A DNA stretch of 25,896 nt from an uncultured virus (IMG/VR IMGVR_UViG_2061766007_002077) (IMGVR_UViG_2061766007_002077), one strand, 5' to 3'; positions 9,903-25,433 are shown, counted from the stretch's first letter. Notes: generated from the sequence alone by a model not told the origin. Translations and numbers: made by a program.

Positions 9903-10610
9903 ATGATACACATAACAGGAGACACACACGGATATTGGGACGAGAGGGAGAACTTCCTTCAGTCACTCCCTAAGACAGATATAGTGATATGCCTTGGAGA
10001 CCTCGGGTGGTCATGGGATATCAACCATATCAATGGATTTGTTCCTAGTTGTGAATGGCTGTCTGTATTGGGGAATCATGAGAACTATACCCTCATTGAG
10101 AAGATGCCCGTTGTGGAGAAATACGGCGGAAAGATGAGGCAGATGAAGGACAACGTATTCTATCTCATGAATGGAGAAATGTATGAGATAGAAGGTAAGA
10201 AGTTCTTTGTGTTCGGAGGTGCCTTATCCATAGACAAGCATTACAGGACACCATATGTGTCATGGTGGCCTCAGGAGCAACCTACAAGGGAGGACTTCAA
10301 TCATGCCCTTGACACATTGGAGAGGAACAACTGGACATTTGATGTCATGCTGACCCATACCGCTGAGACAGAGATAGTGAGGGAGATGCTCGGGAGGCAG
10401 GACACAATAAATGACAGCACAGAGACAATGATACTGGAGTTGAAGTATCAGATAAAGGAACATGGAGGAAAGTTCAGTTATCACTTCTTCGGTCATATGC
10501 ATGATTACTGGATTTACTGCAACAATCTTGATTATCTGTGTATGTGCCTTTATGACCAGGTGTACAATCTTGATAAGAAAGACCTTGAGTTCCCCTTGAC
10601 ATATTTCTGA
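9903..10610 (+). CDS. Calcineurin-like metallophosphoesterase
   Basis: GDTHG, GD, GNHE, TH and GHMH metal-binding motifs. Confidence 0.92.
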   Translation: MIHITGDTHGYWDERENFLQSLPKTDIVICLGDLGWSWDINHINGFVPSCEWLSVLGNHENYTLIEKMPVVEKYGGKMRQMKDNVFYLMNGEMYEIEGKKFFVFGGALSIDKHYRTPYVSWWPQEQPTREDFNHALDTLERNNWTFDVMLTHTAETEIVREMLGRQDTINDSTETMILELKYQIKEHGGKFSYHFFGHMHDYWIYCNNLDYLCMCLYDQVYNLDKKDLEFPLTYF

Positions 10611-10632
10611 GAATAAATCTTATTCAAGGCTA

Positions 10633-10661
10633 TTGACAATCTTTGTGGTATATGGTATTAT
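10633..10661 (+). promoter_or_regulatory. sigma70-type promoter with extended -10
   Basis: TTGACA-N17 (TGn)-TATTAT. Confidence 0.85.
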
Positions 10662-10684
10662 GAGAATGTAAGGAGAACAAAGAC

Positions 10685-10894
10685 ATGAAGTACAGAAAAG
10701 AGTTCAAGGACCAGGTTATCAAGACAAGACTTTACTCACTCATGAGCTTCGATTATGAAATCGCTGATGCATATCACATTTCAGTCGCAACACTCAAAAG
10801 GTGGATGAAAGAGTTCTGGGCTGAGAGAAACAGAGGGGCTGAGAACGAGGAGTTCTCATACAACATCAACTGGGAGAAGGTGAGCGAGATCTAG
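10685..10894 (+). CDS. Small HTH DNA-binding protein
   Basis: KYRKEFK...EIADAYHISVATLKRW helix-turn-helix pattern. Confidence 0.75.
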   Translation: MKYRKEFKDQVIKTRLYSLMSFDYEIADAYHISVATLKRWMKEFWAERNRGAENEEFSYNINWEKVSEI

Positions 10895-10895
10895 T

Positions 10896-11291
10896 ATGAA
10901 ACATAAATACCTTATTGACGATAAGATTCCTCATGGAATCTACAAGCCCAAGAAGGGTGACCATAGGATTCCAAAATGGAAGGAATCCAGAAAGGTCTAC
11001 GGGTTTGACGAAAGGGAGACTTGGGACCTCCGTGATTATTCTCTTGCATGGCTCTATGAGAGAATCAAGATGTTCATTGATGTCTGTGACATTAATCTCA
11101 ATTATCACAAGTTCAAGTACAATGACAAGGAGTTCACTCAGCTTGAGGTACTTGACAAGATACTTGAGGACATCAGACTTTACTTTGATGCCAAATACTC
11201 TTATGACCCTGATAAATGGGAGAAAAGAGTACCTTATCTTAATGAGATTGGAGCTTTGTGGGGACTTGTGCTCCCCGCAATGTGGTGGTGA
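10896..11291 (+). CDS. Conserved phage hypothetical protein
   Basis: GFDERETWDL motif and C-terminal MWW. Confidence 0.7.
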   Translation: MKHKYLIDDKIPHGIYKPKKGDHRIPKWKESRKVYGFDERETWDLRDYSLAWLYERIKMFIDVCDINLNYHKFKYNDKEFTQLEVLDKILEDIRLYFDAKYSYDPDKWEKRVPYLNEIGALWGLVLPAMWW

Positions 11292-11309
11292 ATTATATAG
11301 GAGAAAATA

Positions 11310-11486
11310 ATGGACCCTACAACAGCAATGGAAATTTATGATGCCATATTCAAGATATGGGAGATTTATTACAGAAGGGGTATAATAACCGCAGGATTCC
11401 TTGGATTCAATATCGGTGTTCTTGTCTGTATGCTATTCTCAATCAATGGTCTGCTGAGGACTAAGAAGAAAAAGGACGATAAGTAA
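11310..11486 (+). CDS. Small membrane protein
   Basis: AGGAG SD; one hydrophobic helix and a basic tail (below the ORF-track cutoff). Confidence 0.55.
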   Translation: MDPTTAMEIYDAIFKIWEIYYRRGIITAGFLGFNIGVLVCMLFSINGLLRTKKKKDDK

Positions 11487-12004
11487 ATGATTATTGATTA
11501 TAAGGTTCAGGTCAGCAATGTAAAGACTCTGATGTTCTCCAATTCCCATAAATACCTTCTTGTTGAGTCAGATAAGCATATGGGAAAGGAAGAATCCATT
11601 CTTGATGTAGTCAAGGAGATTAGGGAAATCAGCAGCTGGTCTGATAATGAGATAAAGGATGTCCTTTTAGATGTTGAGGATAACTTTGAGAAAACGGACT
11701 ACAAGCCCTTTATGGTTCTTATANNNNNNNNNNNNNNNNNNNNTATGCAATACAGCACAGAATGTCATTAAGGCATATGAGGACTATGAGAAGAATCCTG
11801 AGGAAAGCGGGTATATCGACCATTGGAACGGCCCCTCACATTATGTTAAGATGATAACAAAATATGAGAAGCCTTCATATCTTTTGGTAAGAGGGTTCAA
11901 GGGGCACCCTGAGGGAACTANNNNNNNNNNNNNNNNNNNNNNNNNNNNNNNNNNNNNNNNNNNNNNNNNNNNNNNNNNNNNNNNNNNNNNNNNNNNNNNN
12001 NNNN

Positions 12005-13468
12005 ACAGAGAACGGAGCACTCACATATAAGACCTCAGGCTCAAGAATCCTTGACTTGTTTTCAAGGGGTGGAGCATACAGGAACAGAAGTGATGAGGAT
12101 ATCATTACTCTTGTTTCAGAGGCATTTGAAGAAGACCCGCTTTATACTCTTGAGGTCCTCTTTTATTTGAGAGACATCAGGGGTGGTCAGGGTGAAAAGC
12201 GTGTATTCCGTGTGGGTATAAATGCCTTGAAGGACGCCCTTAGGACTAAGGACGGAAATCTCCACAACCTCTTTGATACAATTATTGAAATTGGCTCCTG
12301 GAAGGACATTTTTGATTACTTTGAGTTTGACGAGTGGAAGGACTATGTTGTTTCCCATGTTGAGTCATTGAATTTCTCCAAGCCTGACCTTGTGTTCAAG
12401 TATATGCCATCTGTTGGTGGTTCAAAGAACAAGCAGGCTGAGAAGTTGGCTGAGATGCTCAAGATTTCTCCTAAGGAGTATCGTAAGATGCTTACAAGGG
12501 AGAGAAAGAGACTCCAGCTTGTTGAGACCTCCATGTGTGCCAACCATTGGAATGAGGTTGATTACAATCATGTTCCTTCAAAGGCGGGCCTTCTCTACAA
12601 GAACGCATTTGCCAAGCATGATGCTGACAGATACCGCGAATTCATCACAAAGGTGAACGCAGGTGATAAGTCTGTCAAGCTTAATGCCGGAACTCTGTAT
12701 CCTTATGAGATTACAGAGAAGTACATGAATAAGTACAACTTTGAGTACTGTGGATGGGGATACTGTAACGAAGACGGTGAGCGTAAGCCTGTGGTCGATG
12801 AAGTTCTTGAAGCTTACTGGAAGTCACTTCCTGTTTATGGAGAGAGTCAGTTCAACGCTGTTGTTGTGGCTGATACGTCAGGTTCAATGTGGGGAAGACC
12901 TATGGCCGTTTCCACATCACTGGCTATCTACTTCGCTCAGCATAACACCGGTCTTTTCCATAACAAGTGGATTACCTTCTCTCACACACCTAAGTTCATT
13001 GAACTCAAGGAAGGAGAGAGCCTTGCTGACTCCATCTATACTTTCTACAAGAACTCAGAGGTAGCTGATACAAACTTGCAGGCTGTATTCGATATTATGT
13101 TGAAGGCAGCCCTGGATTACAAGTTGCCTGAGAATGAGATGCCTAAGTTGATTTACATTGTCAGTGACATGGAGTTCAACAGTGCCATTGATAACAATGG
13201 ATTCTCAGCTACCAATTATGAGGTAATCAAGGAGAAGTACGCAAGAGCAGGGTATGAAGCCCCAGCAGTAGTGTTCTGGAACGTTGATGCCAGAAATGAC
13301 CAGTCACCTGTCAGGATGAACGAGGCTGGTGTGGCTCTGATTTCAGGGTCAAGCCCTTCAACATTCAACTTGGCAATCTCCAAGGAGTGTGACCCTATGA
13401 CCTTCATGTTTAAGACCATCAGAGTCCCAAGATATGAGGAGCCTGCAAGGAGAATCCTTGGTGTCTGA
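12005..13468 (+). CDS. DUF2828-family TROVE/Ro60-like protein with C-terminal vWA domain (true start in the N gap before 12005)
   Basis: In-frame TENGA upstream of the annotated start, RDIRGGQGE, GSWKD, VPS, LYPYE; vWA MIDAS DTSGSM, DTN, SDMEF, VFWNV, SGxS. Confidence 0.88.
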   Translation, partial: TENGALTYKTSGSRILDLFSRGGAYRNRSDEDIITLVSEAFEEDPLYTLEVLFYLRDIRGGQGEKRVFRVGINALKDALRTKDGNLHNLFDTIIEIGSWKDIFDYFEFDEWKDYVVSHVESLNFSKPDLVFKYMPSVGGSKNKQAEKLAEMLKISPKEYRKMLTRERKRLQLVETSMCANHWNEVDYNHVPSKAGLLYKNAFAKHDADRYREFITKVNAGDKSVKLNAGTLYPYEITEKYMNKYNFEYCGWGYCNEDGERKPVVDEVLEAYWKSLPVYGESQFNAVVVADTSGSMWGRPMAVSTSLAIYFAQHNTGLFHNKWITFSHTPKFIELKEGESLADSIYTFYKNSEVADTNLQAVFDIMLKAALDYKLPENEMPKLIYIVSDMEFNSAIDNNGFSATNYEVIKEKYARAGYEAPAVVFWNVDARNDQSPVRMNEAGVALISGSSPSTFNLAISKECDPMTFMFKTIRVPRYEEPARRILGV

Positions 13469-13845
13469 TAAGTCATTTGAGGAGTTCAAACGTTCTCAGA
13501 AAGAGAGGTCATTGAGCATCATCAACGAGTTGAACGAGTTGATTGATTCAATGAGTGATGAGGAGCTCTATGACCATATGATGAAAACTTCACCGTCTTT
13601 CAGAGAAACAATGAANNNNNNNNNNNNNNNNNNNNNNNNNNNNNNNNNNNNNNNNNNNNNNNNNNNNNNNNNNNNNNNNNNNNNNNNNNNNNNNNNNNNN
13701 NNNNNNNNNNNNNNNNNNNNNNNNNNNNNNNNNNNNNNNNNNNNNNNNTGACACAAAGAGTCAGCGACAAGAGTTTCCGTGATTCTCTCTTGGAAAACAA
13801 AGGAATCACAAACCATCCAGTTTTTTATTTATAAGGAGTTCAGCT

Positions 13846-14364
13846 ATGGGTACATGGAGAGAGGACAATAGCCTGATAAGATATCAGGAATACATGACCA
13901 TAGAGGAACTTCTCACAGATTGGGTTGATGATGTAGATAGGGATGTCATAAGGAAGAATGACTTTCCTATGGTAAGGAAGTACATCGGAGAAGGTCAGAG
14001 ATATTCCAGACTTTACAGATACATTGATGCTCCTCACACCAACTCAGACCCCATCTATGATAAGGATGTCGGAGACATAATAGAGTACAATCTGATATCC
14101 ACCACAAAGAAAAGTCCGAGGGAAGCATTTGATGAATGGTTCGTGGACGATACCAATGTCCTTATATTTGAGGATGTCCAGGGACTTGACCCTCAGGAGT
14201 ATGGAGCAGGAAAGTTCGATTGGGAGGATGAGGTGATAATCTGCGGAAGATTCAAGGTCACTGATATCTCAGAGAAGTCATTTCCAATCCCAAGAAGATT
14301 CCAGAACGATTACAGGAAGACAAGGCTGGAATACACACAATACACACTTTCACCGATTGAATGA
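13846..14364 (+). CDS. Putative mono-ADP-ribosyltransferase (R-S-E clade)
   Basis: LYR (Arg), GD..ISTT (STS-like) and EDEVI (ExE) followed by FKV, in the spacing typical of VIP2/C3/Alt/Mod-type folds. Confidence 0.65.
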   Translation: MGTWREDNSLIRYQEYMTIEELLTDWVDDVDRDVIRKNDFPMVRKYIGEGQRYSRLYRYIDAPHTNSDPIYDKDVGDIIEYNLISTTKKSPREAFDEWFVDDTNVLIFEDVQGLDPQEYGAGKFDWEDEVIICGRFKVTDISEKSFPIPRRFQNDYRKTRLEYTQYTLSPIE

Positions 14365-14449
14365 TTGGTTTTCAAAAAAAGGCACTAATTAACCTATGAT
14401 TATGATGAAATTACAGGCAAGACACATTGATATGCTCAATACAAGTATA

Positions 14450-15220
14450 TTAGCCCCCAAGGGAGGGTTAATGGTTCCTGCTTGTGAAAAGGGAGGGCGG
14501 TTAAGTTGAAGGACTGAAACCCTAATACTTCCCGATACANNNNNNNNNNNNNNNNNNNNNNNNNNNNNNNNNNNNNNNNNNNNNNNNNNNNNNNNNNNNN
14601 NNNNNNNNNNNNNNNNNNNNNNNNNNNNNNNNNNNNNNNNNNNNNNNNNNNNNNNNNNNNNNNNNNNNNNNNNNNNNNNNNNNNNNNNNNNNNNNNNNNN
14701 NNNNNNNNNNNNNNNNNNNNNNNNNNNNNNNNNNNNNNNNNNNNNNNNNNNNNNNNNNNNNNNNNNNNNNNNNNNNNNNNNNNNNNNNNNNNNNNNNNNN
14801 NNNNNNNNNNNNNNNNNNNNNNNNNNNNNNNNNNNNNNNAAGTTGAAGAAAGAGATTTTTAAAGTAACTAGCGAAGGAAACAAGAGCCGAAAGGTATAAG
14901 AGAAATCTTGGCTGGCTGAGTAGGCAATGAAACTCTTGGGGNNNNNNNNNNNNNNNNNNNNNNNNNNNNNNNNNNNNNNNNNNNNNNNNNNNNNNTTAGG
15001 GTGCTCCTCTACTTGAACCTCCGAGATTAAAGAGGATGAACATGAGGAAATCAGTATCTCCCGGAGTAAGCGGATAGGGCTACTGGACTTCATGAATATG
15101 GGTTTACTTGAAAGAGTATTCTCCATAAAATCCAAGAACAGCATGATACCTATACTTGTTAAGTGGTTTCTTCTTATGGGTGTCCAAGTTGAAAGGAGTA
15201 AAGAAAAGCCACTTTTGTTA
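14450..15220 (+). ncRNA. Large structured ncRNA candidate (ROOL/GOLLD-like), partly masked
   Basis: No credible + ORF; GNRA hairpins (GCC-GAAA-GGT, TACTT-GAAA-GAGTA), long stem AAGTGGTTT..AAGCCACTT; directly upstream of the tRNA array. Boundaries uncertain. Confidence 0.55.
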
Positions 15221-15293
15221 GGGAGAGTAACTCAGCGGTTAGAGTTCTGGTCTTATAAACCAGCGGTCATTGGTTCAAACCCAATCTCTCCCA
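15221..15293 (+). tRNA. tRNA-Ile(TAT)
   Basis: Perfect cloverleaf GGGAGAG/CTCTCCC; CTGGT-CT TAT AA-ACCAG; TTCAAAC loop. Confidence 0.92.
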
Positions 15294-15345
15294 TAGTGTT
15301 TGTGGTGTAATCATCATAGACATCACCTCCTCTTACAGTCACAGA

Positions 15346-15417
15346 GTTCAGGTAATTCAATGGCAGATAGACCCAGAGTGGAAAACTAGAATGAGGGTTC
15401 AAGTCCCTTTCTGAACT
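15346..15417 (+). ncRNA. tRNA-like RNA lacking a proper anticodon arm
   Basis: Acceptor GTTCAGG/TCTGAAC, D-loop AATGGCA, T arm GAGGG-TTCAAGT-CCCTT; central region poorly paired. Confidence 0.6.
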
Positions 15418-15436
15418 TTTATCCAACTGTGACATC

Positions 15437-15503
15437 GAGATTCAGCTAGTGCTGGTCCTAGTGGAAGTTGGTCGGCCTTGAAGTGCAATTCTTCAGAATC
15501 TCA
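15437..15503 (+). ncRNA. tRNA-like RNA (acceptor + T arm, no D arm)
   Basis: GAGATTC/GAATCTC stem, TGAAG-TGCAATT-CTTCA T arm, central GCTGGTCC..TTGGTCGGC helix. Confidence 0.55.
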
Positions 15504-15640
15504 TACTTATCTATTTGGAACTTGCAAGTTCCACTTATACTTCTTTCTATCCTCCTTACTTGATAAAGGTGGAACTTGTGCGGACACATGAGGTTTGATA
15601 CTTTCAGCCTGGTGTCTGGGTAACAAAAAGTATCACATTT

Positions 15641-15712
15641 GGTTCATTGGTGTAACGGTTAGCACGCAAGATTGTCAATCTTGAGGCAGGAGTTCAACTC
15701 TCCTATGGACCG
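15641..15712 (+). tRNA. tRNA-Asp(GTC)
   Basis: Cloverleaf; CAAGA-TT GTC AA-TCTTG; G73. Confidence 0.93.
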
Positions 15713-15714
15713 AA

Positions 15715-15788
15715 GCTAGAAACCTGAGTTCGATTCTCAGCCCGATAGCTCACAAGTGGTTCGGGTAGTATAGTGGTATTACACTGGC
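15715..15788 (+). ncRNA. Circularly permuted tRNA mimic (YrlA/Y-RNA topology)
   Basis: Order GCTAG - T arm CTGAG TTCGATT CTCAG - CCCGA loop TCGGG - TA - D arm GTAT AGTGGTA TTAC - A - CTGGC. Confidence 0.75.
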
Positions 15789-15938
15789 GGGGAGTAGGTT
15801 ACNNNNNNNNNNNNNNNNNNNNNNNNNNTAATGTCCTATGGATTGCTGATATGTGCAGGAATGTTTGGCAGTTGCCTATGTGTTTCTAACTGCACTGGGA
15901 CATATCTGACTGGAGGCAACCATCAGATGATGTTAAAA

Positions 15939-16013
15939 TGGTACTAAGCTTTGATAGGTGAAGCACCCCTAGTATATAGGGGGAATAAGGGGGTTCAAGT
16001 CCTTCAGTACCAA
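15939..16013 (+). ncRNA. Atypical tRNA/tRNA mimic (anticodon position TAT, no U33)
   Basis: TGGTACT/AGTACCA, D arm GCTT/AAGC, CCCCT-AGTATAT-AGGGG, T loop TTCAAGT. Confidence 0.65.
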
Positions 16014-16750: not shown

Positions 16751-16821
16751 TGCCCTATCGTTCAATAGTAGGACACAAGCTTCTGGTACTTGACATCGTG
16801 GTGCAATTCCATGTGGGGCAG
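16751..16821 (+). tRNA. tRNA-Gln(CTG)
   Basis: TGCCCTA/TGGGGCA; loop TT CTG GT; variant D and T loops. Confidence 0.85.
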
Positions 16822-17503: not shown

Positions 17504-18379
17504 ATGATTTGTAAGAGTTGTGGTAAAGAGTTTTTTGAAGATTGGAGAAAGGATAGCAAAATTAGAAAGACTCCTTGTAGATTTTGTTGTATTGAATGCT
17601 CACATTCACGGAGTTTATCTAAGGAAACAAAAGAGAAAATAAGCAAATCCCTTTTGAAATATCATTCTCCTAATCCTAAAAGGAACAGATACTTTTATGA
17701 TAAAGATACAGAATTAGGAAGATTTGAACGTTCCCAGGCTTATTCTAAAAAATCACCTAACTTAATTAAAGTTGGATTTAATTTCGAAGGTTCTTTGGAA
17801 AAGGAATATCAAAGAATAAAAACTCAGCTTTTCAATGATTATATCATTGAAGAAAAATCCACTTTGGAAATAAATTTAAAATATTCTTTTAAGTCCTCAA
17901 GAACAGGCTATGATATATTGAAGCTTTTTAATATTGAAAGAAGAGATTTATCAGAATCATTAAGATTGGCTTTAAAGAATAATAAGGTTCAAATTCCAGG
18001 TGCATCTGATTATCATCAAGGATGGTATATAGATTGGAGAGGGAATAGTCATTTTCTCCGTTCTCAATTAGAGTTTGATTTAGCTGAAAAACTTGATTCA
18101 AATAAAGAAGAATATTTAACTGAAGTTCCCATAACTTATTTTTCCATTAAGGAAAATAAGGTAAAAATAGGTTTACCTGATTTTTATTTACCAAATAAGA
18201 AATTGTTTATAGAAACAAAGGGTGAATACTTTTTGGATAGAGAAGACCTACTTGATAGAAGTAAAGTCATAAATGAAATGGGGTGTGATTTTAAAGTTTT
18301 AGTTGGTAATCATAAAAATGAAATTATAGAAGAAATAAATTGGGCTGTTGGCAGAAAAGTTGATGCACCGGTCTCTTAA
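17504..18379 (+). CDS. Free-standing homing-endonuclease-like protein (Zn finger/NUMOD3-like N-term, PD-(D/E)XK C-term)
   Basis: CxxC..CCxxC, SKETKEKIS, RSxLE, PDFYLP..FIETKG; visibly more AT-rich than neighbouring genes. Confidence 0.8.
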   Translation: MICKSCGKEFFEDWRKDSKIRKTPCRFCCIECSHSRSLSKETKEKISKSLLKYHSPNPKRNRYFYDKDTELGRFERSQAYSKKSPNLIKVGFNFEGSLEKEYQRIKTQLFNDYIIEEKSTLEINLKYSFKSSRTGYDILKLFNIERRDLSESLRLALKNNKVQIPGASDYHQGWYIDWRGNSHFLRSQLEFDLAEKLDSNKEEYLTEVPITYFSIKENKVKIGLPDFYLPNKKLFIETKGEYFLDREDLLDRSKVINEMGCDFKVLVGNHKNEIIEEINWAVGRKVDAPVS

Positions 18380-18992: not shown

Positions 18993-19856
18993 TTGAAGAT
19001 GAATACTCTTAATGAAAAACTCAGAAACAGTGATTACATCAAGTTCGTGAAGATGTTTGAATCCGAAGACCCAATTTATTGTTTCAGTGGTATCTCAGCT
19101 TGTAGGGGTTTGTCTAAGGAGAATCCTACCAAGAAAGATATTGACGATAATAATTCAAGGAACAATAAGGCCACAGAGCTCCTTGAGCGTCAGATTGATG
19201 CTGCTGGACTCTCATTCATGGAAATGGAAGGGGTCTATGAGGAATATGAGGCCGGTATTGTCTATGAAAAGAGTTTCCTTGTCTATTCCACAGACGAGGA
19301 GAAGCTGAGAAAGGTTATGGAGACTCTTGGAAGGGCCTTCAATCAGGATTCAGTTCTTTTNNNNNNNNNNNNNNNNNNNNNNNNNNNNNNNNNNNNNNNN
19401 NNNNNNNNNNNNNNNNNNNNNCAGAAATCCCTTGAAACAATGTTCTCAAGACTTGGAACAAGGAAGTCCGGAAGAAGATTCCAGCTTAACAGTATCAAAG
19501 AGAAGTCATTTGCTGACAACTTCATGACCAAGCTTATGTATTACACANNNNNNNNNNNNNNNNNNNNNNNNNNNNNNNNNNNNNNNNNNNNNNNNNNNNN
19601 NNNNNNNNNNNNNNNNNNNNNNNNNNNNNNNNNNNNNNNNNNNNNNNNNNNNNNNNNNNNNNNNNNNNNNNNNNNNNNNNNNNNNNNNNNNNNNNNNNNN
19701 NNNNNNNNNNNNNNNNNNNNNNNNNNNNNNNNNNNNNNNNNNNNNNNNNNNNNNNNNNNNNNNNNNNNNNNNNNNNNNNNNNNNNNNNNNNNNNNNNNNN
19801 NNNNNNNNNNNNNNNNNNNNNNNNNNNNNNNNNNNNNNNNNNNNNNNNNNNCTTAA
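18993..19856 (+). CDS. Putative S-adenosylmethionine lyase (T3 SAMase-like); true 3' end masked, likely shorter
   Basis: ISACR..NNSR..EGVYEE..YEKS..NQDSVL collinear with T3 gp0.3 motifs as recalled; AGGAGG SD. Confidence 0.6.
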   Translation: MKMNTLNEKLRNSDYIKFVKMFESEDPIYCFSGISACRGLSKENPTKKDIDDNNSRNNKATELLERQIDAAGLSFMEMEGVYEEYEAGIVYEKSFLVYSTDEEKLRKVMETLGRAFNQDSVLXXXXXXXXXXXXXXXXXXXXXQKSLETMFSRLGTRKSGRRFQLNSIKEKSFADNFMTKLMYYTXXXXXXXXXXXXXXXXXXXXXXXXXXXXXXXXXXXXXXXXXXXXXXXXXXXXXXXXXXXXXXXXXXXXXXXXXXXXXXXXXXXXXXXXXXXXXXXXXXXXXX

Positions 19857-21008: not shown

Positions 21009-21099
21009 AGGCCTTTAGTATAATGGTGTCCGGATTAAAGCATAAGCAGTACGCGGAAGTGTCTAAACCGAGGTAGAGGTTCGATTCCTCTAGGGTCTG
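21009..21099 (+). ncRNA. Atypical tRNA with 27-nt D loop (GTC anticodon register)
   Basis: AGGCCTT/AGGGTCT, GTAT/GTAC D stem, AGAGG-TTCGATT-CCTCT; 3-bp anticodon stem. Confidence 0.65.
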
Positions 21100-21183: not shown

Positions 21184-21255
21184 GCGGGATTCGTATAACA
21201 GCTAGTATATGGGTCCTCCAAACCTAAGGCGAGAGGGCGGCACTCTCATCCCGCA
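21184..21255 (+). tRNA. tRNA-Gly(TCC)
   Basis: GCGGGAT/ATCCCGC; TGGGT-CC TCC AA-ACCTA; T loop GGCGGCA. Confidence 0.82.
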
Positions 21256-23138: not shown

Positions 23139-23212
23139 GAGGGTGTAGCTCAACTGGACAGAGCCACGGATTTCTAATCCGTTTGTTGGGAGTTCAAGTC
23201 TCTCCATCCTCG
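23139..23212 (+). tRNA. tRNA-Arg(TCT)
   Basis: ACGGA-TT TCT AA-TCCGT. Confidence 0.94.
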
Positions 23213-23219
23213 TAAAAAT

Positions 23220-23290
23220 TGGGATGTAGTGTAATGGTAACACAAGGGTTTTTGGTGCCCTACTTGAAGGTTCGACTCCTCCCATCCCAG
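23220..23290 (+). tRNA. tRNA-Gln(TTG)
   Basis: TGGGATG/CATCCCA; AGGGT-TT TTG GT-GCCCT. Confidence 0.93.
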
Positions 23291-25329: not shown

Positions 25330-25401
25330 TTAACTGGGTCTTNNNNNNNNNNNNNNNNNNNNNNNNNNNNNNNNNNNNNNNNNNNNNNNNNNNNNNNNNN
25401 N

Positions 25402-25433
25402 CGGTAAGATGGGTTCAACTCCCGTACCGTCTG
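25402..25433 (+). tRNA. 3' part of a tRNA (5' half and anticodon masked)
   Basis: ATGGG-TTCAACT-CCCGT T arm followed by ACCGTCT-G. Confidence 0.55.

Follow-up and report, generated by a model that had tools for sequence, protein, structure and literature searches.

Red algae, green algae and one archaeon possess tRNA genes in which the parts of the tRNA are permuted; these genes give rise to decoding tRNAs via a circular intermediate and a splicing endonuclease. To our knowledge, bacteria have no such splicing-endonuclease pathway. A permuted order is also found in the YrlA-type RNAs, which are bound by Ro60/Rsr and modified by TruB and DusA. Here we describe an element of permuted, tRNA-like order in DNA from an uncultured virus (IMG/VR IMGVR_UViG_2061766007_002077). 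The stretch analysed, 25,896 nucleotides (nt) in length and referred to below as the window, is a tRNA island of a large phage of the rumen, with 22 tRNAs called by ARAGORN between 15221 and 24800. The element has its core at 15715-15788 on the plus strand and a 3' tail that reaches 15802. We consider it to be a functional, permuted and free-standing mimic of the tRNA elbow that would derive from the transcript of the tRNA array, with the phage's own Ro60-fold protein as a possible but not an obligatory partner, and we put the probability of this reading at roughly 0.55.

[quoted passage not shown] A YrlA structure was described by Wang et al. (2018, bioRxiv 10.1101/312249). In the description by Chen et al. 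(2014, PMC4201824), a YrlA RNA lies within 4 kb of a Ro60 gene on the same strand, Ro60 chiefly contacts the 5' strand, tandem tRNAs are known false positives, and YrlA RNAs were found in 22 phages. TROVE proteins occur in jumbo phages (PMC7824862), and the Ro60 protein of Thermus phage phiLo binds two upstream Y-like RNAs, Yrl1 and Yrl2 (PMC12135203). Mimics of the YrlA type, those of phages included, are already known, and the element is a variant of this known sort and not a new sort. Judged by title, none of the papers found on permuted tRNA and bacteriophage dealt with such an element.

Permuted geometry of the element

The element and its upstream neighbour are composed of the following parts, all on the plus strand.

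15640-15713 (+): tRNA-Asp(GUC), upstream neighbour of the element (ARAGORN; Rfam tRNA model, 66 bits)
15715-15719 (+): 5' strand of the closing stem, GCUAG, equivalent to the 3' strand of a tRNA anticodon stem, with only AA before it
15720-15723 (+): equivalent of the variable region, AAAC, by sequence reading; invariant in 5/5 copies
15724-15740 (+): T arm with a 5-bp stem, CUGAG/CUCAG, and a canonical UUCGAUU loop; an orphan T arm outside the called tRNAs
15741-15765 (+): sealed acceptor-like hairpin, CCCGA (15741-15745) with UCGGG (15761-15765) and a 15-nt loop; the pairing is conserved
15766-15782 (+): UA (15766-15767), equivalent to U8/A9, and D arm (15768-15782) with a GUA(U)/(U)UAC stem and an AGUGGUA loop containing GG
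15783-15788 (+): A equivalent to A26 (15783) and 3' strand of the closing stem, CUGGC (15784-15788), which pairs back to GCUAG
15789-15802 (+): conserved purine-rich 3' tail, GGGGAGUAGGUUAC, recognised in alignments and running into the N gap at 15803-15828

Read in this way, 15715-15788 runs from the closing stem through the T arm, a sealed 5-bp acceptor hairpin, UA and the D arm back to the closing stem, and the acceptor-like hairpin has neither a free 5' nor a free 3' end. The original prediction had proposed this order, and all of its coordinates and sequence blocks were found to be correct when re-read from the sequence. The positions of the tertiary contacts in tRNA are all present between 15720 and 15782 (U8, A14, G15 with C48, G18 G19 and the UUCGAUU T loop) and are invariant in 5/5 copies, save for one D-loop position; the last C of AAAC could make the Levitt pair with G15 of the D loop. 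The part that corresponds to the 5' half of a tRNA is closest to the tRNA-Ala of the window, with an identical D stem and an identical CTGGC, a resemblance that had likewise been pointed out in the prediction, and a tRNA-Ala-like gene was probably the ancestor of the element. Because a run of 26 N (15803-15828) lies directly 3' of the element, its 3' continuation is unreadable in the window.

In the native order, neither ARAGORN nor the Rfam tRNA model called a tRNA at the element. When the two halves were swapped in silico, on the other hand, ARAGORN called a tRNA in 160/160 junction variants, which bears out the permuted order on a re-permuted sequence. Searched with a strict descriptor of the permuted geometry as a whole, the window contained one match, compared with two in 100 shuffled windows and one among the 118 control loci rich in tRNAs (91,066 bases).

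We considered the possibility that the element is a true permuted tRNA gene, whose product would have its ends joined at the anticodon loop, by circularisation or ligation, before opening of the acceptor stem yields a decoding tRNA, as in some algae. As in the algal and archaeal genes, the sequence for the 3' half of the cloverleaf comes first and that for the 5' half second, the re-permuted sequence is accepted by ARAGORN, and the flanking tRNAs could in principle leave ligatable ends. Unlike those genes, the element has no anticodon loop and no 7-bp acceptor stem; the 5-bp stem is followed by U-U and G-A (or A-A) mismatches. CCA is absent, the flanks of the closing stem provide neither U33 nor the usual 7-nt anticodon loop in any of eight junction variants, and in relatives conserved sequence extends for 130 nt or more on the 3' side. 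Across the element, contigs of four runs showed no junction that leads back, although a contig could not reveal one. We regard a permuted tRNA gene as highly improbable. An RNA that lacks both an anticodon loop and a free CCA end would neither be charged nor decode.

Two-piece transfer-messenger RNA (tmRNA) was compared as well. It shares with the element the order of T arm, 3' strand of the acceptor, loop and 5' strand of the acceptor, and the 5' half of the element resembles tRNA-Ala. The element differs from it in having a true D stem and in lacking G3-U70, CCA and a tag reading frame. No tmRNA was called by ARAGORN, and the Rfam tmRNA models gave only an 11.7-bit T-loop fragment in the related metagenome contig L125. 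When the element and its relatives were searched with Rfam at E<=10, no YrlA, tmRNA, group I intron, ribozyme or other family was found.

Copies of the element and conservation of its pairing

The same module is present in G001, a viral contig of 284,702 bp (96% complete), and in the metagenome contigs L124, L125 and L127. G001 holds the sole copy in the viral collection, the scan of metagenomes gave four matches (the copies in L124, L125 and L127 and one tandem tRNA pair), and the collection of bacterial and archaeal genomes contained no copy. A loose pattern extending from T loop to D loop matched at least 119 stretches, mostly tandem tRNAs, G001 being the only true copy among the matches listed. 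The module is also found in Logan contigs of the sequencing runs X3, X4 and X15; all evidence from sequencing runs consists of assembled contigs. The runs that hold window DNA are labelled as bovine, sheep or other gut metagenomes. One X3 contig extends upstream into the 3' end of the window's tRNA-Asp, and a tail variant, GUUGG in place of GUAGG, was seen in an X3 contig.

These copies bear on the possibility of an assembly artefact that united two tRNA halves beside a scaffold gap. The window contains 34 N runs of 10-349 bases that look like scaffold gaps, and the element ends 1 nt short of the run at 15803-15828. However, the stretch 14996-15802 is continuous, and the identical arrangement occurs in four contigs of other assemblies and in contigs of at least three runs from different studies. 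Misassembly, an objection raised beforehand, is ruled out by these independent contigs, and we give it practically no weight.

The upstream neighbour of the element varies by lineage. It is the canonical tRNA-Asp in the window and in X3, and three differing odd tRNA-like genes take this place in G001, in L125/L124 and in L127; homology to the window resumes exactly at AAGCTAG. The original prediction had suggested that sequence downstream of the core can pair with the 3' end of tRNA-Asp, so that two folds may compete. A pairing of the GGGGAG tail with the 3' end of tRNA-Asp does exist, with a predicted energy of -11.2 kcal/mol, but this value is not better than 19% of shuffled tails, and nothing comparable was found in the relatives, whose upstream tRNAs differ. 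Pairing of the tail with the upstream tRNA was rejected as lying at chance level and not being conserved.

The five copies are 95% identical. All 18 pairs of the fold are formed in every copy (90/90 cells), compared with only 27-41% in a control in which the partners were slid by 1-3 columns. The closing-stem pairs (3-7 with 72-76) are paired in 25/25 cells, with one G-C replaced by G-U in two copies. In the acceptor hairpin, pair 31-51 is C-G in two copies and U-A in three, a compensatory change, and one low-depth DNA contig has a further change from G-C to G-U. The permuted order is kept throughout.

In a search with a covariance model built from the element (R1), L125 and L127 were each found to hold another, much diverged module immediately 3' of the element, scoring 27.6 and 24.5 bits, respectively. 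A third module is present in L124.

L125:309-410 and L127:18-119 (-): second permuted module, detected with R1
L124:331-434 (-): third permuted module, between tRNA-Ile and tRNA-Thr, with a 6-bp closed acceptor hairpin

The second module is paralogous to the element and has the same topology: a 5-bp closing stem, a 4-nt variable region, a T arm, a closed acceptor stem, 2 nt, a D arm with GG, 1 nt and the closing stem. Its acceptor loop measures 30 nt and contains another T-arm-like hairpin. L125 and L127 differ in this module at five places, three of which preserve the pairing of the T stem (as a compensatory pair and a change from G-U to C-G); of the others, one keeps the acceptor stem as a wobble and one breaks it. 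The second module is absent from the window and from G001. The third is the only module that was aligned in full length by the Rfam YrlA model (RF02553), at 24.2 bits against a cut-off of 69. Because the modules recur, a selected fold is ranked above debris.

A different candidate for L125, in which the 5' half of the element belongs to an intron-containing tRNA with its 3' half downstream (Rfam tRNA model, 27.6 bits), was rejected because the downstream T arm is that of the second permuted module, which the window and G001 do not have.

The conservation data also allow us to weigh the explanation that the element is a non-functional relic, composed of a decayed tRNA 3' half and a related tRNA 5' half and left by duplication and deletion in a fast-changing array. 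Under this explanation the acceptor strands would not be expected to remain complementary and to change together, as they have done, nor the tertiary-contact positions all to be kept with 0 broken pairs in 90 cells. Between the window and G001, moreover, the element has changed at one position in 90 nt, whereas the next gene, the tRNA-Ile-like one, shows several changes, some of them compensatory, and the diverged second module has its own compensatory change. In favour of a relic, the island has a mosaic make-up when relatives are compared, its cassettes having been exchanged, and it contains several odd tRNA-like genes; the 5' half resembles tRNA-Ala, tandem tRNAs imitate the arrangement for both covariance models, and the copies are so similar that the statistics are weak. 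Taking these points together, we judge a relic to be unlikely.

Relation to YrlA RNAs and to the Ro60-fold protein

The original prediction had assigned the element to the YrlA architecture. The likeness is considerable: the element and YrlA (RF02553) both have an anticodon-stem-like closing helix, a variable region, a T arm, a closed acceptor stem-loop and a D arm, in the same order, with the termini at the equivalent of the anticodon stem. The nucleotides of the tertiary contacts are the same, an anticodon loop and a free CCA end are absent, tRNA genes are near, and second copies occur in tandem in relatives. In the window a Ro60-fold gene is found within 4 kb on the same strand; G001 has the element and no DUF2828/TROVE match. 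On the other hand, the element has no long terminal helix, its D and T stem sequences differ from those of YrlA, its acceptor loop is 15 nt long, and it begins 2-3 nt after the 3' end of a tRNA. It is also kept in a relative in which no Ro60-type gene was found.

With RF02553 (gathering cut-off 69 bits), the element remained without a match at E<=10 in each of the three sequences searched, namely the window, G001 and L125, so that the recommended Infernal search with the YrlA covariance model was negative, and the whole of G001 contained no match at E<=0.1. The only RF02553 match in the window was a tandem tRNA junction at 23182-23245, with 23.9 bits. Since only 2-3 nt (AA or AAA) separate the upstream tRNA from the closing stem, the element has no 5' Ro60-binding strand. 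The GNCGAAN0-1G motif is absent from it; the CGAA of the window is the 3' end of tRNA-Asp and is missing in G001, L125 and L127. The D stem, GUAU/UUAC, is unlike the signature D arm of YrlA, UAGCUCA...GGUAGAGC, a pattern which in the window was found only within three canonical tRNAs. Thus the topology of the predicted architecture stood, and the 5' strand, the motif, the D stem and membership in RF02553 did not; the element is not an orthodox YrlA. No other YrlA-like RNA was detectable in the readable part of the window.

The candidate protein partner is encoded upstream of the element.

12056-13468 (+): gene for a DUF2828+DUF7788 protein (Pfam; PHROG 850, 'RNA-binding protein') with a predicted Ro60 (TROVE+vWA) fold
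11921-12004: N run over the start of this gene

The true start of the gene probably lies within this N run, to judge from the sequence, since a database protein of 100% identity has 499 residues. The 3' end of the gene is 2.2 kb upstream of the element, on the same strand. Searches of the PDB by sequence found no Ro60, and Pfam by sequence identified DUF2828 and DUF7788 and not TROVE. Structure was examined with an AlphaFold model of the protein (predicted local distance difference test score (pLDDT) 85.6, predicted template modelling score (pTM) 0.81). In Foldseek, the 11 best PDB matches of the model were all TROVE/Ro60 proteins, led by the phiLo Ro60 (TMq 0.54-0.57) and including Xenopus Ro60 and Deinococcus Rsr; the matches to 9kop, 9l5y, 1yvr and 2nvo, with E values of 6e-8 to 5e-5, are full-length. 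On the basis of the model, the DUF2828 protein is predicted to have the Ro60 fold, with a ring of HEAT repeats and a vWA domain, and the earlier treatment of DUF2828 as a Ro-type protein was justified. The protein has 4217 homologues at E<=1e-5. Protein-based searches of viral contigs with the DUF2828 protein and with a neighbouring protein of 251 residues found no close relatives, and the full-text literature on 'DUF2828', judged from titles and the starts of abstracts, included none about phages or Y RNAs.

We compared the gene content of the window and G001. A cassette of 3.7 kb in the window (10610-14369), comprising the DUF2828 gene and four small open reading frames, is absent by blastn from the syntenic site of G001, which lies between a metallophosphoesterase gene and the minus-strand gene for the 251-residue protein, both conserved. 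In G001 there was no match to the DUF2828 protein, PF11443, PF05731 or the A3 profile built from 32 homologues. The element itself is kept in G001 with one substitution, and in this one relative it is thus independent of the DUF2828 cassette.

We also examined DUF2828 genes in other phages. R1 was used to scan 80 viral loci (L130-L209) that encode DUF2828 relatives, and the whole records of 50 of these 80 were searched with RF02553. R1 gave 36 matches at E<=1, all on the strand of the gene. Half of them (18/36) overlap tRNAs called by ARAGORN and are tandem artefacts; 16 of the other 18, in 12 loci, are located 252-657 nt upstream of the gene. With RF02553, 54 matches at E<=0.01 were obtained in 33/50 records, none above the cut-off, and 23 of the 54 (in 21 records) are on the strand of the gene and within 1.5 kb of it, compared with 0.98 expected from uniform placement. 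After removal of 3 near-duplicates, 9 of the 12 RNAs were aligned, and the D arm UAGCUCAG..GGUAGAGC was invariant in 9/9; their acceptor hairpins aligned poorly. Most DUF2828-linked RNAs precede the gene by 150-670 nt, frequently as a tandem pair, and many of the loci hold 10-23 tRNAs. Phage DUF2828 genes, then, commonly adjoin YrlA-like RNAs, often beside tRNA arrays. The element has in common with these RNAs the T arm, the short closed acceptor hairpin, UA and the D arm, the strand of the DUF2828 gene and the proximity of tRNA arrays. It shares neither the YrlA signature D arm, nor the 20-49 bits obtained with RF02553, nor the position 150-670 nt upstream.

These results bear directly on the proposal, made in the original prediction, that the element is a Y-like RNA for the DUF2828 protein. 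As a dedicated Y RNA, it would be bound by the Ro60-like protein at the closing stem and tail, and its tRNA-like part would tether a host enzyme such as PNPase, in a manner resembling YrlA with Rsr or Yrl1/Yrl2 with the phiLo Ro60. The Ro60 fold suggested by the Foldseek matches, the YrlA topology and the absence of another YrlA-like RNA from the readable window are consistent with this, as are the YrlA-like RNAs and, often, tRNA arrays that flank DUF2828 genes elsewhere. The distance of 2.2 kb on the same strand is inside the 4 kb of Chen et al. (2014), and in phiLo, as here, one genome encodes both a Ro60-fold protein and small structured RNAs near it on the same strand (PMC12135203; PDB 9KOP, 9L5Y). 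However, the phiLo RNAs are directly upstream of the gene and are described as stem-bulge-stem Y RNAs with a CGAA motif (PMC12135203), whereas the element is 2.2 kb downstream, within a tRNA array, and lacks both a stem of this kind and a conserved CGAA. The position also departs from that of the DUF2828-linked RNAs, whose invariant D arm the D stem of the element does not resemble. In addition, the element has no match to RF02553 and no 5' strand, the strand that Ro60 chiefly contacts according to Chen et al., and G001 retains it without any DUF2828/TROVE match. We consider a dedicated Y RNA of the DUF2828 protein doubtful.

Returning to the free-standing elbow mimic, several observations weigh against it. 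The minimum energy of the element predicted by RNAfold was no better than that of shuffled sequences (z = -0.07), and the cloverleaf-like fold lies 5.7 kcal/mol above the predicted minimum. RNAalifold, applied to three full copies, returned a competing long helix in which the D-arm region and the closing strand pair with the tail about 50-65 nt downstream (L001:497-633 on the minus strand, L125:183-316 and L127:114-247). Covariation amounts to one event per module, and 48/500 column shuffles reach the observed score. Support from RNA libraries consists of one assembled contig of 197 nt (X15), which runs from the T stem through the downstream domain at a depth of about 5 and may be DNA carry-over. 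As for the partner, G001 is a single genome in which the searches could miss divergent proteins, and a Ro60-fold gene lies on the same strand, 2.2 kb upstream, as the criterion published for Y RNAs would have it, so that the element may yet depend on Ro60. Some of these points can be qualified. The cloverleaf of real tRNAs is often missed by predicted energy minima; the alternative helix has one compensatory pair and four broken cells, and the minimum-energy folds of the single sequences disagree among themselves; and the shuffle control is weak because the divergence among the five copies (95% identity) is so small.

If the free-standing elbow mimic is nevertheless the right reading, the element would be transcribed with the phage tRNA array, and its 5' end would be made by 3' trimming of the upstream tRNA, leaving AA-GCUAG. 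Cleavage of the element by RNase P is unlikely by analogy, in view of the 5-bp acceptor stem (compare Salmonella YrlA, PMC4201824). The four helices (closing stem, T arm, sealed acceptor hairpin and D arm) may form the L-shape of tRNA via contacts between D loop and T loop, and the RNA would then show a tRNA elbow to a tRNA-recognising protein, as a decoy or a tether. Candidate partners are the phage's Ro60-fold DUF2828 protein or a host factor, and a Ro60 protein of the host could be used. YrlA-type mimics are otherwise known only as partners of Ro60. The element retains only the tRNA-like half and survives in a relative in which no Ro60 gene was found, and it therefore isolates the question of what recognises a sealed tRNA elbow, for which it provides a minimal RNA of about 75 nt.

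Tentatively, the picture may be widened. Giant rumen phages may carry in their tRNA arrays a distinct group of Ro60-independent, inside-out tRNA mimics, some of them in tandem, that are freed by host tRNA processing and act as decoys or scaffolds for an elbow-binding host factor, such as a defence or processing enzyme that targets tRNAs. Along with this, the DUF2828/DUF7788 proteins (PHROG 850) may be the main phage branch of Ro60, each with its own YrlA-like RNA and habitually beside tRNA arrays. The Ro60 fold and the habitual flanks of YrlA-like RNAs and tRNA arrays would let thousands of DUF2828 genes of unknown function be read as Ro60-type RNA-handling modules.

The surrounding tRNA island

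Downstream of the N run that follows the element, a hairpin is conserved.

15853-15895 (+): conserved hairpin in a domain of about 15833-15935; GUGCAG/CUGCAC in the window and G001, GUACAG/CUGUAC in L125 (compensatory)

This hairpin is probably a separate module, because the RNA-library contig X19 carries the domain behind a different upstream sequence. It is followed at 15939-16013 by the tRNA-Ile(UAU)-like gene, which has G and not U at position 33. Compared with G001, this gene shows compensatory changes in the acceptor and anticodon stems, and it is therefore considered to be under selection despite its odd loop.

Non-canonical tRNA-like genes that were missed by ARAGORN are located at 15346-15417, 16751-16821, 21011-21098 and 21184-21255. 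Among them, one has its anticodon arm replaced (Rfam tRNA model, 28.3 bits), in another an orphan T arm at 21075-21091 follows a long insert, and one has an unusual GGCGGCA T loop (37.8 bits). Most of a further tRNA-like gene is covered by an N run:

25343-25401: N run over most of a tRNA-like gene, the T arm of which is at 25409-25425

In G001 and L125 there is an odd tRNA-like gene for Asp(GUC), whose acceptor stem measures 8 bp and whose T loop reads GGCAGCA. The island of the window also includes protein genes at 17504-18379 and 18993-19856; one of the two is weakly endonuclease/resolvase-like by PHROGs, and the other is S-adenosylmethionine lyase-like by Pfam.

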